Origin: an uncultured Candidatus Berkelbacteria bacterium
Lineage (GTDB): Bacteria; Patescibacteriota; UBA1384; CAILIB01
Assembly (NCBI GenBank): GCA_903834195.1
Contig: CAILIB010000029.1
Location: 7,715 to 71,714 of the forward strand
DNA length: 64,000 bases
Direction: 5' to 3'
The notes beneath the pieces are model-generated. The model ran no database searches and was not told the DNA's origin. It saw only the letters and a program-made list of their open reading frames with translations. Positions within the stretch are counted from its first letter, which is position 1; each line of letters starts with the position of its first letter. The translations under genes and the position numbers were made by a program. Below, piece after piece: positions 25,559-30,680 of this stretch.

Positions 25559-26316
25559 TGGTGGGTAATCACAATAAATAGGTAAGAACGGAGGAATGGA
25601 ACAAGCAATGGCACAAGCGCATATAGAAAGGCTAGAGGGTACGGTATGCGCGTAGGAAACGCGCCTCGCACAAGTGCTTTTTCACTACCAGCAATATACC
25701 CCTTTTTCTCAACGTTGAAACCAGCTTTTTGCACGACTTCCAGCAATTCAGCCATCGAATACTCGTGATGATGTAACTGTTTACGAGTTGGACCTTCATG
25801 AACAGGGTAAATCGGCCGACCAAAAATTACCCGAATCCGATTTGCCAGATTACAGATATTTGGGGTGGTAAGAATTACTCTCCCCTCTGGCGAAAGTACG
25901 CGCTTTAACTCCGATACGCAGTGCTCAGGACCGTCTTCAAAATGCTCAATAACTTCTGTGAATAAAATTACATCAACACTTTTATCGGCAATTGGTACTA
26001 CTTCATGCTCGACATCACACTGCACAATTTCTAATCCCTGAGCTTCTAATGCAGATTGAGTGTTGAACCGATTAGGATCGTAATCCACACCAATAACTCG
26101 AGTTGCTCCAAATCGTTTACAACTGAGTGCAAGGTGACACGGAAGCGTACCAATATCCAGCACAGTTTTTCCCACTACCTGACTCTGAGAAAGAAGTCGT
26201 AACGTATCTACATACCTACTACGGTGGAGACGAAAATACTCAAGCTCGGCTGAGTTATCAGGTTTAATCTGGCGAATAAGTGTATATGCAGTGGATCGAT
26301 TCATACTACTCAGCAT
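25555..26316 (-). CDS. Class I SAM-dependent methyltransferase
   Basis: Motif I VLDIGT.PC, DVILFTEVIEH, and a Methyltransf_11-like layout. Confidence 0.75.
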   Translation of the reverse strand: MLSSMNRSTAYTLIRQIKPDNSAELEYFRLHRSRYVDTLRLLSQSQVVGKTVLDIGTLPCHLALSCKRFGATRVIGVDYDPNRFNTQSALEAQGLEIVQCDVEHEVVPIADKSVDVILFTEVIEHFEDGPEHCVSELKRVLSPEGRVILTTPNICNLANRIRVIFGRPIYPVHEGPTRKQLHHHEYSMAELLEVVQKAGFNVEKKGYIAGSEKALVRGAFPTRIPYPLAFLYALVPLLVPFLRSYLFIVITHQ

Positions 26317-27490
26317 CTAAAAAGTGTTTCCCTTTTAGCTCATCGGGCAACATCTCGCCCTCTGTATACATTTCGTACCCATCGCCATACCCAAGTTCCT
26401 TCATTAACCCAGTTGGCGCGTTGCGTAATTTAAAAGGAACTGGCAGATTTCCTGTTTCTTTTACAACCTGTTGAGCGCGCCGTAACCCATCGTAGGCGCG
26501 ACGATCTTTCTTACAACTGGCCAAATATGCCACCCCATGCGCCAAATTAATGGACGCCTCCGGGTAGCCAATTGATCGAACCGCCTCAAATACAGCATTC
26601 GCCACTACCAGTGCAGTTGGCTGGGCGAGTCCAACATCTTCCGAGGCAAACACCACCATACGCCGCGCAATAAAGACTGGATCTTCCCCGGCTTCGATCA
26701 TGCGTGCCAGGTAGTAGAGCGCAGCATCAGCATTACTGGCGCGCATACTTTTTATGAAGGCTGAGATTGTATTGTAATGTTCCTCACCTGTTTTGTCGTA
26801 GCGCAAGCGAACCTGACCAGCTTGCTCAACTGTTTTCTGAGTAACTTCTCCATATAACGCGTGTGCCGAATCAATTAACCCAATCAATTGCCGAGCATCC
26901 CCACTCGTGAGGGTGGTGAGCCATTTTTTAGCTTCTGCATCTTGCACGAGTTGAGTACGCTCAATTACTAAGCCCATTTCATCAGGAGTAAGCGATTGCA
27001 ACACAAACACACGACAGCGCGAGAGCAAGGCTGGAATCACTTCAAAGCTCGGATTTTCGGTGGTGGCACCAATTAAGGTTAATTTGCCTGATTCAACCCA
27101 TGGCAGGAGAAAATCTTGTTGCGATTTATTAAAACGGTGAATTTCATCCAAAAATAGAATGGTCGGCTGAAGATCGTTTTCAGCTTGCAGAAGGATTTTG
27201 CGAATATCGTCTTTACCGGCTGAAACAGCTGAGAGCTCGTATAGCGTTGCTTCTACTGCCTCAGCGTAAATGCGGGCAATAGTAGTTTTACCCACACCTG
27301 GCGGACCCCAGAGAATAAATGACAGGAGACGCTTAGATTCAACAGCTACCCTTAGCGGTTTTCCGGAGCCTATAAGATGCTGCTGACCTACCACTTCATC
27401 CAGATTTTTTGGACGCAATCGAGAAGCTAGCGGCTGTTTGCCGATATGTTCGGGGAAAACGCTTACTTGTTCGGCTTTCTTTCGGTTCAT
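26306..27490 (-). CDS. rarA: Replication-associated recombination protein A (AAA+ ATPase)
   Basis: Walker [20 protein letters not shown], a MgsA C-terminal domain-like sequence. TATGCT lies 6 nt upstream of the ATG. Confidence 0.9.
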
Positions 27491-27568
27491 ACCAGTAGCA
27501 TACCACGTTTTTATCTAATTTCCATCTCGTTATTAGCGCATAATTATATCAATAATTGGCTATGGTAA

Positions 27569-27597
27569 TTGACAAATCGTATAAATGTGTGTATATT
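27569..27597 (+). promoter_or_regulatory. Consensus sigma70-type promoter with no annotated gene downstream
   Basis: TTGACA (27569-74) - 17 nt - TATATT (27592-97). Confidence 0.7.
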
Positions 27598-27603
27598 GTC
27601 GAG

Positions 27604-27885
27604 ACTCAAGGAGGTCACAACATGGGTTTCTAGCACAACTAGAATCGGCGTTCGGCGCTCGAGATAGGTACAACCCTTCTCCAGCGCCCTCGTAAACCAT
27701 GATCTGCACCACCGAATGAGAAAAGCAAAAGATACCACACAAATAGGAGGTGTGTTATGAGCTACAACTAAAACCGCGCTAAGCGCATAAACAAATCAGG
27801 ACTAATGTCCGGATCAAAAAAAGAAGCCATTTAGGCACCTTGGGACCCATAGCACGCAACGAAGCAGCTAGGGTCCCTTTTATTT
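27604..27885 (+). ncRNA. Candidate ~280-nt small RNA / mini-ORF transcript (unknown family)
   Basis: Bounded by the consensus promoter above and the terminator GGGACCC(27842-48)...GGGTCCC(27871-77)+TTTTATTT. Internal hairpins at 27630-42, 27654-88, 27776-86 and 27796-813. Two SD-led mini-ORFs (27622-33 MGF*, 27757-71 MSYN*). Confidence 0.5.
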
Positions 27886-28651
27886 ACTTCTCTTTTCTCA
27901 ACTTTGCCCCATCCCACGCCAGTGAAAAAATCTGCGCAACTGTATTGGCAATTTCTGGGCTTTGAATCAGTACACCAAAGTGGTTTTTATTTGTGTAATT
28001 GAAAAACTTAATTCCCCAATCTGTGAACACTGTTAATGAACCTTCAAGAAGTAGCTCCCCCGGCAAAAAGTGAATTGCCTCACGGAGCTCTTTTTTATTT
28101 TGAGCTTCAGTAAGCATTTCCTTGCTTACATAAATAACCTTAGAGTGGATTCCTCGTTCTACTCGAGTATTAACCGTCTGTTTACGTTGCTGGGGAAACG
28201 TTTCTACCACAATATCCAAAGGAGAAATGGTAAGCATCTCAGTATCAGAGGTCATCTGATCACTGCCGTAGTTCTCAAGCTCAACCAACCCATCTTTACC
28301 CTCAAAGAACCGAACTACGGGCTTATCAGAGCGAAAATTGTACATCGCCTCAAGCTGGGTGATATTTGCCTTCAGGTCAGAACGATGTGCCTCAAGCTCA
28401 GCAATATGAGTATCAACCAACTGTTCGAGAACTGCTGGGTGCTCGGCACGGAAGTAACTTCGCTTACCTTCAGGTGCTTCTTTCAAAAGACCAAGTTTGG
28501 AGAGACGCTCCAAAATAACGTACACCGTGACCCGCTTAATACCGGTTTTTGTAGCCACATCTTGCACACTAGCTGTACCCAACTGCAAAAGTGCCAAGTA
28601 GGTAGCTGCTTCTTTGTCTGAAAGCCCAAGTTTTTGTAAGAGTTCTTGCAT
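27884..28651 (-). CDS. TrmB-family transcriptional regulator
   Basis: N-terminal wHTH LLQKLGLSDKEAATYLALLQLGTASVQDVA..GIKRVTVYVILERL. The start is set to ATG 28651, which fits the promoter geometry. Confidence 0.8.
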   Translation of the reverse strand: MQELLQKLGLSDKEAATYLALLQLGTASVQDVATKTGIKRVTVYVILERLSKLGLLKEAPEGKRSYFRAEHPAVLEQLVDTHIAELEAHRSDLKANITQLEAMYNFRSDKPVVRFFEGKDGLVELENYGSDQMTSDTEMLTISPLDIVVETFPQQRKQTVNTRVERGIHSKVIYVSKEMLTEAQNKKELREAIHFLPGELLLEGSLTVFTDWGIKFFNYTNKNHFGVLIQSPEIANTVAQIFSLAWDGAKLRKEK

Positions 28652-28657
28652 GAATAC

Positions 28658-28686
28658 AGTATACATAATCCGTATACTTTTATCAA
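28658..28686 (-). promoter_or_regulatory. Promoter of the TrmB gene, leaderless geometry
   Basis: On the minus strand: TTGATA (28686-81) - 17 nt - TATACT (28663-58) - 6 nt - ATG 28651, with no SD. Confidence 0.65.
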
Positions 28687-28757
28687 TAAGTGACAATATT
28701 AAATATACTTTCTAATCTTTAAAGTATAAATAAAATACATTGTAATTATAAAACCTC

Positions 28758-28786
28758 TTGACATAATTCAATTTTGCGGGTATACT
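28758..28786 (+). promoter_or_regulatory. Consensus sigma70-type promoter, divergent from the TrmB gene
   Basis: TTGACA (28758-63) - 17 nt - TATACT (28781-86). Confidence 0.7.
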
Positions 28787-28902
28787 GCCGTTTGTCAGTT
28801 GAAAAGGGAGTGAGTACGCAATGAACCGGCCTAAACAATTATCGGCTTGGCTTGCCTCACCCTTTTCAACAAAAGACGAGCTCATTAAAAACTCGACCAC
28901 CT

Positions 28903-28952
28903 GGAGGCGCTGGCGCTTTTCTAAGTCAGGTTCGATTCCTGCCGCCTCTCCA
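28903..28952 (+). other. tRNA-like minihelix (acceptor stem + T arm + CCA) lacking D and anticodon arms
   Basis: GGAGGCG (28903-09) pairs with CGCCTCT (28943-49). The T-arm-like CAGG-TTCGATT-CCTG is identical in loop and most of the stem to the tRNA-Arg T arm at 311-327. It is followed by CCA (28950-52). Confidence 0.5.
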
Positions 28953-29097
28953 ATCTTCGGCTGTCCGTTCCAGACTGCCCCTCCTTCCAGCTTATAAAAA
29001 TTTCTAAGTTGAAAGGAGGGGTCAGTGATGGAGTCTAAAAGATGCGATGCGACTTGTTCGTAACCCTCTATGTATGACAACTCATACCTGGAGCGTT

Positions 29098-29493
29098 ATG
29101 AACAAAATCGTATCCCTCATTTTCGTCACTGCCTTGGGTTTCAGCCTCATGGGATGCGATAATGCCCCGAAGCTGAACGTGCATCGCCTCGACGGCATCA
29201 CTGCCGCACAGCTTCCGGTCTCCCCCCAGGCCGAAAGCGATGAGCCGCTGGCATCAGGTGCCTTGAAGGGCCTGTACAGCATGGGGGCTGGTATCCCAAA
29301 TACCAAGGAAGTACCCGACCTTCGCGTCCGTCAGGTTACTTCGAATCGAAAGACGCGTTGCGCCGTCGAGATCATTGATAAGGATGGAAACATCCTGATG
29401 CATGAAGTCTACGATAAGCAGTTGGATGGTCAGGAAACCGCTGAGAATGATGCAGTGGAATTCGCCAACCGCTATCGACGGCGTAAAAGGTGA
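29098..29493 (+). CDS. Small lipoprotein, orphan (GC3-rich codon usage)
   Basis: MNKIVSLIFVTALGFSLMGC lipobox. GGAG lies upstream. Codon choice (CTG, GCC, CCG) differs from neighbouring genes. Confidence 0.6.
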   Translation: MNKIVSLIFVTALGFSLMGCDNAPKLNVHRLDGITAAQLPVSPQAESDEPLASGALKGLYSMGAGIPNTKEVPDLRVRQVTSNRKTRCAVEIIDKDGNILMHEVYDKQLDGQETAENDAVEFANRYRRRKR

Positions 29494-30302: not shown

Positions 30303-30680
30303 ATGAAGAAACTTTACATCGGCAATTTGTCGTACAACACAACTGAAGATACCATCGTTGCCTTTTTGGCATCAGTCCTTCCAGAAGGAACAGACGCTAC
30401 TACGGTTATCACCAAAGTAGAACTGATCCCTGGTGAGACTACTCCTAACAAGGGGTTTGGTTTCGCAGAAATCGCTGACGACGCGATTGCAGAAACAATG
30501 ATCCAACAGCTTGACGGTCAAGAAGTTGACGGTCGCCCACTACGTATTAACGAGGCTCGTCCAAAGACAGATCGTCCACGTACTGGTGGTGGTTACAATG
30601 GCGGCGGCGCAAGTCGTGGCGGTTATAACGGCGGTGGTTCATCATCGTCTTACGGCGGCGGAAATCGTCGTAGCTACTAA
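30303..30680 (+). CDS. RRM-type RNA-binding protein with Gly-rich tail
   Basis: RNP2 LYIGNL, RNP1 KGFGFAEI, C-terminal GGGYNGGG repeats. Confidence 0.9.
   Translation: MKKLYIGNLSYNTTEDTIVAFLASVLPEGTDATTVITKVELIPGETTPNKGFGFAEIADDAIAETMIQQLDGQEVDGRPLRINEARPKTDRPRTGGGYNGGGASRGGYNGGGSSSSYGGGNRRSY

Follow-up and report, generated by a model that had tools for sequence, protein, structure and literature searches.

Three-codon open reading frames (ORFs) are usually written off as noise. The leader of Listeria lmo0919 holds an upstream ORF (uORF) of this size that serves as a ribosome sensor, and the bar minigenes of phage lambda, AUG-AUA-stop with a Shine-Dalgarno (SD) sequence, exert their effect through peptidyl-tRNA drop-off and the sequestration of tRNA or ribosomes; their toxicity is seen only in Pth-deficient hosts. 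The dual-function small RNAs (sRNAs) RNAIII/hld, SgrS/SgrT and SR1/SR1P combine conserved peptides of 26-43 amino acids (aa) with conserved base-pairing regions, and the Rgg/SHP and PrgX/PrgQ pairs join secreted precursors of 20-25 aa to RRNPP-type TPR regulators. In the STAB-SD/ermC type of stabilization, known from Gram-positive-like bacteria, a transcript is protected from 5' exonuclease in a ribosome-dependent manner. In the vmlR leader of Bacillus subtilis, the three-codon uORF(MIN) acts purely via ribosome occupancy and requires its SD and start codon, and the uORF variants MIN, MDN, MDK and MRK are functional in Bacilli (PMC9226507). Here we describe, at 27604-27885 of the plus strand of a 64-kb stretch of DNA (the window, whose positions serve as coordinates and whose two strands amount to 128 kb of strand-bases), what is very probably a conserved RNA gene that is linked to a regulator gene and contains two conserved minigenes. 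Two minimal ORFs are the only sequence-conserved part of this RNA gene, and it stays beside the same regulator gene across relatives in which the regulator is only 34% identical.

The initial annotation of this DNA had proposed that an orphan unit, transcribed from its own promoter to its own terminator, gives an RNA of ~280 nt with two SD-led mini-ORFs. Every promoter element, SD, mini-ORF, hairpin and terminator that it listed was found in its place, and the proposal is strengthened by the comparative data presented below. The promoter (27569-27597, plus strand) has a -35 element TTGACA at 27569-74, extended to TTGACAAAT, and a -10 element TATATT at 27592-97; the 17-nt spacer ends in TG (27590-91), which makes an extended -10. 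With a score of 11/12 it is the joint top match in the 16 kb scanned, and transcription is predicted to start at ~27604. SD1 (AAGGAGGT, 27608-27615) includes AAGGAGG (27608-14), which is followed after 7 nt by mini-ORF 1, ATG GGT TTC TAG (27622-27633), reading Met-Gly-Phe-stop. SD2 (AGGAGG, 27745-27750) lies within the loop of a CACAC/GUGUG hairpin, 6 nt ahead of mini-ORF 2, ATG AGC TAC AAC TAA (27757-27771; Met-Ser-Tyr-Asn-stop). Two small hairpins follow on the 3' side, GCGC-UAA-GCGC at 27776-27786 and UCAGGAC-UAAU-GUCCGGA at 27796-27813, in a region that is variable among homologues. The unit closes with a unidirectional intrinsic terminator (27842-27885), composed of a hairpin at 27842-77 and the U-tract TTTTATTT at 27878-85. 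The U-tract overlaps the stop codon (27884-86) of a convergent minus-strand gene of the TrmB family, so that the terminator does converge on and touch this stop, as had been claimed. Our terminator scan omitted 27842-85 because its loop is above the limit of the scan; the hairpin 27842-77 is included in the minimum-energy structure calculated by RNAfold. Compared with shuffled sequences, the plus strand folds strongly (z = -5.5), but the minus strand does so too (z = -4.0). Folding alone thus cannot assign the strand, and the orientation of the unit rests on the direction of the promoter, the terminator and the mini-ORFs.

A comparative set of 10 independent loci was obtained via homologues of the TrmB-family protein (34-100% protein identity). 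Forty relatives of the regulator were detectable in 5.8 billion proteins, the closest being 61% identical, and contigs were retrieved for ten of the 40. The element, that is, a strong SD, an AUG with two sense codons and a stop, a second mini-ORF and a terminal hairpin, is present in 10/10 evaluable loci. The typical first SD is (A)GGAGGUGA. Mini-ORF 1 has two sense codons after the AUG, or three in the most distant locus sampled (L216, 34% identity), and reads mostly Met-Gly-X; a second ORF of 3-5 codons lies 58-135 nt downstream of it in all ten loci. In the 61%-identity relative (L081-L084), an equal-sized gap follows the regulator gene and the element occupies the opposite strand of this gap, with a TTGACAAA-N13-TGTATA promoter, AAGGAGGT-N6-ATG GGC CAT TAG (MGH), GGAGG-N8-ATG GGA TGG TAA (MGW) and a terminator (L081). 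Mini-ORFs 1 and 2, each followed by a stop, read MGS and MGG in L085, MGG and (TTG)SF in L086, MNG and MSN in L088, MGS and (TTG)GG in L090, MGS and MDG in L091, MDG and MNG in L093, MGG and MGC in L094, and MGGA and MGGGL in L216. The 3' part varies in length from ~20 nt (L088, L093) to ~380 nt (L090). The shortest members, 132 nt in L088 and 160 nt in L093, leave a minimal unit made of the first structured domain (domain 1, described below), mini-ORF 2 and the terminal hairpin.

The unit is convergent with the regulator gene in 9/10 loci, and in five of these nine the terminator hairpin comes 4-12 nt from the trmB-like stop. In the tenth, L216, the unit has its own terminator and stands upstream of the regulator gene on the same strand; the terminator lies about 55 nt before the trmB-like start, with an extended -10 element (TGATATTAT) in between. 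Because the L216 unit is tandem yet still adjacent, the linkage between element and regulator outlasts rearrangement. The remaining flanking genes vary by locus and include rarA, a gene for a 687-aa protein, groES/groEL, glycosyltransferases and a LytR-family gene; only the RNA and its regulator gene stay together throughout. In the window, rarA (26306-27490, minus strand) lies on the other side of the unit and is divergent from it. Eighty genome loci obtained via RarA showed no similarity to the unit by blastn and nhmmer, and no mini-ORF element was found in them except one chance-like match, which indicates that the rarA neighbourhood is incidental.

The promoter TTGACAAA-N13-TGTATA is common to the window, L081, L085, L086 and L090. 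At the promoters of eight units (window, L081, L085, L086, L090, L093, L094 and L216) the -35 element is extended to TTGACAAAT (TTGACAAAA in L081), the counterpart in L088 being TTGACAATT. The extension could characterize promoters throughout the lineage, or the linked regulator could bind to it. In the five A+T-rich members, little sequence separates SD1 from the predicted 5' end. In L088, L093, L094 and L216, the nearest consensus promoter is found 215-440 nt upstream, and in the G+C-rich members SD1 is 170-400 nt from the promoter. A separate observation concerns two G+C-rich members, L088 and L094, where an ORF of 45-48 codons that starts 150-190 nt upstream ends at a UGA inside the SD1 string GGAGGUGA. 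These two ORFs are not homologous to each other; they may have arisen by chance or may couple termination to reinitiation.

How specific are the mini-ORFs? The pattern GGAGG-N5-9-ATG-2 codons-stop occurs once in the two strands of the window together, at this unit, compared with one occurrence in 1.29 Mb of RarA-locus strand-bases and three in 1.37 Mb of pattern-selected loci. The background of the exact first-mini-ORF pattern is thus 1-2 per Mb over 2.7 Mb of control DNA, and the pattern is present in 8/9 distinct TrmB loci. The exception, L091, has the SD variant GGGGUGA, which would keep wobble pairing with the anti-SD. Intergenic sites in the window that combine an SD and an ATG with an ORF of no more than 4 codons number two, both within the unit. 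Another SD plus 2-codon site, at 53666-89 on the minus strand, was taken as chance since it lies antisense inside a 491-aa ORF. For mini-ORF 2, the strict form (ATG, 2 codons and a stop, 30-150 nt after the first) is found in 6/10 units as against 0.71 expected (P ~1e-5), and in the other four units an SD precedes a variant ORF that starts with TTG or is 4-5 codons long. A metagenome scan for promoter, GGAGGT and ATGG was used as an estimate of background: among the 120 matches listed, the ORF exceeds 6 codons in 117, in nearly all of which its length is ordinary, and has 6 codons or fewer in 3; no new homologue appeared.

The sequence conserved across the ten units is limited. Only AGGAGGTGA, ATGGGT and TAAAAC exceeded the shuffle null, and these k-mers correspond to the extended SD, the start with its Gly codon and the stop context of mini-ORF 2; the top conserved k-mer, GGAGGT/GAGGTG, occurs in 8/10 homologues. 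The spacer between SD and AUG is kept at 5-8 nt with free sequence, and the stop alternates between TAG and TAA, always in frame. Position 2 of mini-ORF 1 is Gly in 8/10 units and position 3 is Gly or Ser, again in 8/10. All four Gly codons are used at codon 3, as are Ser codons from both families (AGU, AGC, UCG), and the codons of the mini-ORFs are rich in Gly, Ser, Asn and Asp. The conserved strings therefore look like translation signals rather than an RNA motif. A six-frame comparison of the units revealed no conserved peptide of 20 aa or more in any frame, from which it follows that the unit is not a protein gene. A hidden protein gene was rejected also on the ground that the gene-caller ORFs in the gaps, including those upstream of SD1 in L088, L093, L094 and L216, are non-homologous. 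The idea of a dual-function RNA, raised in the initial annotation, fails for lack of both a conserved peptide of at least 20 aa and any conserved k-mer beyond the translation signals.

Alignment of domain 1 with MAFFT and RNAalifold gave no consensus because P3 is variable in length; for this reason the homologues were compared by their individual minimum-energy folds. Independent folds of 8/10 homologues, of differing sequence, predict a three-way-junction first domain that is closed by helices containing SD1 and AUG1. In the window, P1 is formed by the SD1 strand (27610-17) and an anti-SD strand (UGCACCACC, 27705-27713), and an analogous pyrimidine-rich closing strand occurs ~90-105 nt downstream of SD1 in 8/10 homologues. 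P1b, in which CAUGG (27621-25) pairs with CCAUG (27697-701), encloses P2 and P3 and would thereby sequester the start codon of mini-ORF 1; equivalent AUG-containing helices with other flanking bases are seen in L085, L086, L088, L090, L094 and L216. P2 (27628-27644, UUCUAG/CUAGAA with loop CACAA) holds codon 3 and the stop of mini-ORF 1. Hairpins of other sequence take its position elsewhere, with GUAGUU/AACUAC in L085, GUAGC/GCUAC in L090, GACGGU/GCCGUC in L093 and GGGCC/GGCCU in L081. P3 (27648-27693) is a long G+C-rich stem with the core GGCGCU...AGCGCC (27654-88), and a strong hairpin of unrelated sequence stands at its position in all homologues. The first start site is predicted to be more base-paired than those of 13 ordinary window genes (Mann-Whitney p = 0.016). 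When ribosome footprints on mini-ORF 1, mini-ORF 2 or both were forced unpaired in the thermodynamic model, the terminator hairpin kept all its pairs in 10/10 units, and constrained folding gave no coupling between the two start sites. Since the terminator is independent of ribosome occupancy in these models, the RNA would be free-standing rather than a classical attenuator.

The regulator gene (27884-28696, minus strand) had been called TrmB. It does belong to the TrmB family of helix-turn-helix regulators, as shown by a match to PF01978 (E = 6.7e-15, 55 bits) and a TrmBL2-like fold; it is not the tRNA methyltransferase of that name. The corresponding database protein, P0001, has 260 aa, which implies a gene start at 28666. 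An AlphaFold2 model (pLDDT 94.7) has a long coiled-coil helix at 79-110, and the best full-length matches among solved structures by Foldseek are to TrmBL2 (5bpd/5box, E ~1e-13), an archaeal chromatin protein that is described as ligand-independent in the 5bpd entry. The C-terminal domain has a PLD-like fold with Foldseek matches to Zucchini/PLD3, and the His of 'HSK', the would-be catalytic residue, is not kept in the family consensus. The protein thus has the TrmBL2-like architecture, with an N-terminal winged helix, a coiled-coil helix and a non-HKD PLD-like C-terminal domain, and on the model it is a DNA-binding protein, not an enzyme. Because the terminator of the RNA gene is unidirectional, the regulator mRNA must extend in antisense into the RNA gene, which makes it complementary to the 3' part of the RNA. 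As for the host, the identity of RarA to any species-representative genome is no more than 69%, and most of the best matches carry the label Paceibacterota, Saccharibacteria or Patescibacteria group, so the unit probably belongs to a sparsely sampled lineage within the Patescibacteria.

At gathering threshold, Rfam 15 identified only a tRNA-Arg (265-337) in the whole window. A scan of 27450-27950 at E<=10 returned two chance-level matches (12.7 and 17.8 bits, against gathering thresholds of 39 and 60), and nothing was found within the unit in eight homologous loci. In keeping with the earlier remark that the RNA resembles none of tmRNA, RNase P, SRP or 6S RNA, neither Rfam nor ARAGORN found anything in the unit. 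ARAGORN called no tmRNA in the window and Rfam none even at E<=0.5; the tag frame of a tmRNA has no SD or AUG, whereas the frames of the unit start with a canonical SD and AUG. Absence or lack of conservation in relatives, or an Rfam match, had been named as fatal to the proposal, and neither was found. Collections of phage, plasmid and viral contigs held no match for the RNA or the regulator, and a mobile-element origin was rejected accordingly. A sponge of the CsrB/RsmZ type, with 5-20 GGA in loops, was also rejected: the minimal L088 and L093 have one or two GGA, and such a sponge leaves the conserved AUG and in-frame stop unexplained. The unit is a new conserved RNA gene without an Rfam family, and its building blocks resemble three-codon uORF sensors, minigenes and dual-function sRNAs.

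How, then, might such an RNA work? Only very strong SDs and minimal ORFs are conserved, an output gene is lacking, and the promoter is near consensus. These features suggest an RNA that acts on or through the ribosome, and would do so neither via a protein product nor via a conserved pairing seed. Ribosomes would load on the very strong SDs, co-transcriptionally or once P1 opens, and after translating two or three codons they would terminate before moving out of range of the SD. If the RNA is abundant, it could serve as a natural minigene or ribosome trap, retaining ribosomes, discharging short peptidyl-tRNAs or both, and in cells with very few ribosomes it could damp or report translational capacity. 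The TrmBL2-like neighbour would control the consensus promoter of the RNA. In the convergent arrangement, the regulator might additionally be controlled through the overlapping 3' ends, adding a layer of mutual control; this overlap cannot be the core function because it is absent in L216. Among the roles suggested in the initial annotation, a ribosome-engaging sRNA fits best.

Several points weigh against this explanation. Both transcription and translation are read from sequence signals alone, and the trap or minigene effect is drawn by analogy with the lambda bar minigenes. Sequestration of one specific tRNA is unlikely, as the units differ in their last sense codon. In the predicted folds most of SD1 and AUG1 is paired, which would limit ribosome loading unless it is co-transcriptional or triggered. 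Mini-ORF 2 is without a good SD in four G+C-rich members, and the distant promoter in L088, L093, L094 and L216 may mean that the RNA there extends further or belongs to a larger transcript. The set is also small, ten loci compared by their individual folds. Taken as a whole, the statement that this is a conserved RNA gene that works as a ribosome trap has in our estimate a probability of about 0.45, and the trap mechanism considered by itself is put forward tentatively, at somewhat less than even odds.

Comparison with the described systems places the unit beside, and not within, each of them. As in vmlR, an SD, an AUG, two sense codons and a stop are found at the base of an RNA helix, and the peptide is loosely constrained; mini-ORF 1 lies inside the closing helices (P1/P1b) and is conserved in 10/10 loci. 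The vmlR-type sensors act in cis: they are 5' leaders of ~200 nt that form either an antiterminator or a terminator and stand ahead of a resistance gene. In contrast, the unit has no detectable antiterminator (none in the 10 homologues in the thermodynamic model), carries two mini-ORFs and has a convergent gene for a DNA-binding protein as its partner. A downstream sense gene is lacking in 9/10 loci, and only L216 has the trmB-like gene in sense. The unit shares with lambda bar a strong SD and an ORF of 2-3 codons in an otherwise non-coding transcript. The bar minigenes are of phage origin and have no conserved structured domain or linked regulator, whereas phage, plasmid and viral collections gave no match for the unit, and its last sense codon varies. 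Like the dual-function sRNAs, it is an independent sRNA transcription unit with a small ORF, but its ORFs are of 3-5 codons and no region is conserved beyond the translation signals. A helix-turn-helix regulator gene beside an RNA with a tiny ORF, often convergent or overlapping and with antisense interplay, recalls Rgg/SHP and PrgX/PrgQ. Here, however, the would-be tripeptides have no export signals and the regulator is TrmBL2-like.

Other explanations start from the same features. An attenuator-type stalling sensor would follow the vmlR leader, in which an SD-led three-codon uORF stands at a helix base and initiation is needed for induction (PMC9226507). A ribosome arrested on mini-ORF 1 by an inhibitor of initiation or of peptidyl transferase, or by uncharged Gly-tRNA, would open P1 and alter termination or read-through at the 3' hairpin. 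Read-through would make trmB-like antisense RNA in the convergent loci, or sense RNA in L216, and in this way regulate the regulator. The position of mini-ORF 1 in the closing helix of domain 1, the over-representation of Gly codons in the mini-ORFs and the terminator abutting the trmB-like gene (by 4-12 nt in 5/9 convergent loci, and ~55 nt before the start in L216) all agree with such a sensor. The terminator, however, keeps its pairs in all ten units under forced footprints, no antiterminator is evident, 100-500 nt of variable sequence separate mini-ORF 1 from the terminator, and the sign of regulation would be opposite between the convergent and tandem arrangements. In L216, moreover, the extended -10 between terminator and gene means that the trmB-like gene there probably has its own promoter. 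Attenuator and toggle models were rejected because constrained folding shows neither loss of the terminator nor coupling of the start sites, and we consider a stalling sensor in general improbable. The absence of a conserved seed, with translation signals as the only conserved k-mers, speaks against the alternative of a conventional base-pairing or cis-antisense sRNA, which would pair with the 3' end of the trmB-like mRNA or with targets in trans and use the SD and mini-ORF as a 5' stabiliser. This alternative draws on the complementarity of trmB-like transcripts to the 3' part of the sRNA that the unidirectional terminator entails, on the convergent arrangement in 9/10 loci and on the strong SD near the predicted 5' end in the five A+T-rich members. 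But a stabiliser needs no AUG, no fixed three-codon length and no second mini-ORF, all of which are conserved, and SD1 is not 5'-proximal in the G+C-rich members, where the promoter is 170-400 nt away. An antisense role at the TrmB 3' end, as suggested earlier, is plausible for the nine convergent loci and does not hold generally, as the tandem upstream position in L216 abolishes the overlap. A base-pairing sRNA therefore seems unlikely to us.

It is also conceivable that the RNA serves as the message for one or two (formyl-)tripeptides, such as fMet-Gly-X, that are intracellular ligands of the C-terminal domain of the regulator, a leaderless analogue of the Rgg/SHP or PrgX/PrgQ pairs; only in this extreme sense could the micropeptide genes of the initial annotation apply. 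The tight, rearrangement-proof linkage to a gene for a ligand-type regulator speaks for it, as does the well-folded, non-catalytic PLD-like domain that could bind a ligand. So do the Gly at position 2 and the Gly or Ser at position 3, each in 8/10 and specified by synonymous codons including both Ser families, which hints at selection at the amino-acid level. The G-rich second codon is equally explicable by pairing in P1b and P2, though, and the peptides diverge even among closer relatives (MGF, MGH, MGS, MGG; MSYN, MGW) and vary from 3 to 5 residues. The closest structural match, TrmBL2, is the ligand-independent chromatin protein mentioned above. We know of no ribosomal gene product as short as a tripeptide that is functional, and the chance that the peptides are the product appears slim. 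At the opposite end, the SD-AUG-stop strings might not be translated at all and instead be binding motifs for protein or RNA, or the region might be decaying, non-functional DNA. The pairing of most of SD1 and AUG1 in the predicted folds is compatible with this, and the case for translation comes from sequence only. Decay is excluded by conservation across 10 loci in which the linked protein is only 34-61% identical to that of the window. A pure binding motif would need neither an in-frame TAG or TAA stop, nor a free spacer of 5-8 nt, nor an SD that preserves wobble pairing (GGGGUGA in L091), and we regard an untranslated element as very improbable.

If the ribosome-trap explanation is true, ribosome-occupancy elements, now known only from phages, as curiosities, or in front of resistance genes, as cis leaders, would have stand-alone counterparts that regulate the cell. 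These would occur in a very large bacterial radiation that is uncultured, poorly understood and equipped with minimal translation machinery. The unit might even define a distinct class, of stand-alone ribosome-engaging minigene RNAs or of tripeptide genes, a step further that we find doubtful. As minigene RNAs, its members would have a three-way junction that hides the first start site and gates ribosome access, and a dedicated TrmBL2-like protein that restrains the RNA, the pair forming a translation brake or gauge in the ultra-small cells of Patescibacteria. As tripeptide genes, they would be the smallest known functional coding genes, supplying ligands for the regulator. The RNA and its regulator make a testable module, and the signature of extended SD, AUG-GGN-NNN-stop and hairpin can be used to mine Patescibacteria genomes and metatranscriptomes.

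The neighbourhood of the regulator gene offered some further observations. Upstream of it in the window lies a gene-free stretch of 482 nt (28667-29148) with a near-consensus second plus-strand promoter, TTGACA-17-TATACT (28758-86), about 350 nt from a lipoprotein-like ORF, the next called gene, whose start is near 29100-29149. An SD-led 11-codon ORF with its ATG at 29028 (MESKRCDATCS-stop) is also found in this stretch, which may represent a long leader or a further small RNA. An ORF at 30303-30680 (plus strand), 2.4 kb from the unit, encodes a glycine-rich RNA-binding protein with an RRM domain (RRM_1 in the source annotation), a possible RNA partner. Gene-free stretches of 1.3-1.65 kb occur beside TrmB-family homologues at L086:3784-5433 and in the P0017 locus (gap 804-2099); being much longer than the RNA unit, they suggest additional non-coding elements.

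Compact tmRNA-like elements were seen in two of the ten loci, at L094:2582-2665 (plus strand, 84 nt) and L091:4351-4419 (minus strand, 69 nt), and none in the window. They have an acceptor stem, a T-arm and a CCA end, with an insert of 20-29 nt in place of the mRNA-like domain; they score 51.0 (L094) and 34.8 bits (L091) against the Rfam tmRNA model and were not called by ARAGORN. A tmRNA that consists of the tRNA-like domain only would be unusual in bacteria. A strong promoter is found 280-510 nt upstream of each element. Both lie less than 1 kb from the unit, on differing relative strands, and the proximity was treated as coincidental. In the window itself, a long, near-perfect A+T-rich inverted repeat (335-426) directly follows the tRNA-Arg. 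It gives sub-threshold Rfam matches to several miRNA-precursor models and is probably a terminator or a recombination site.

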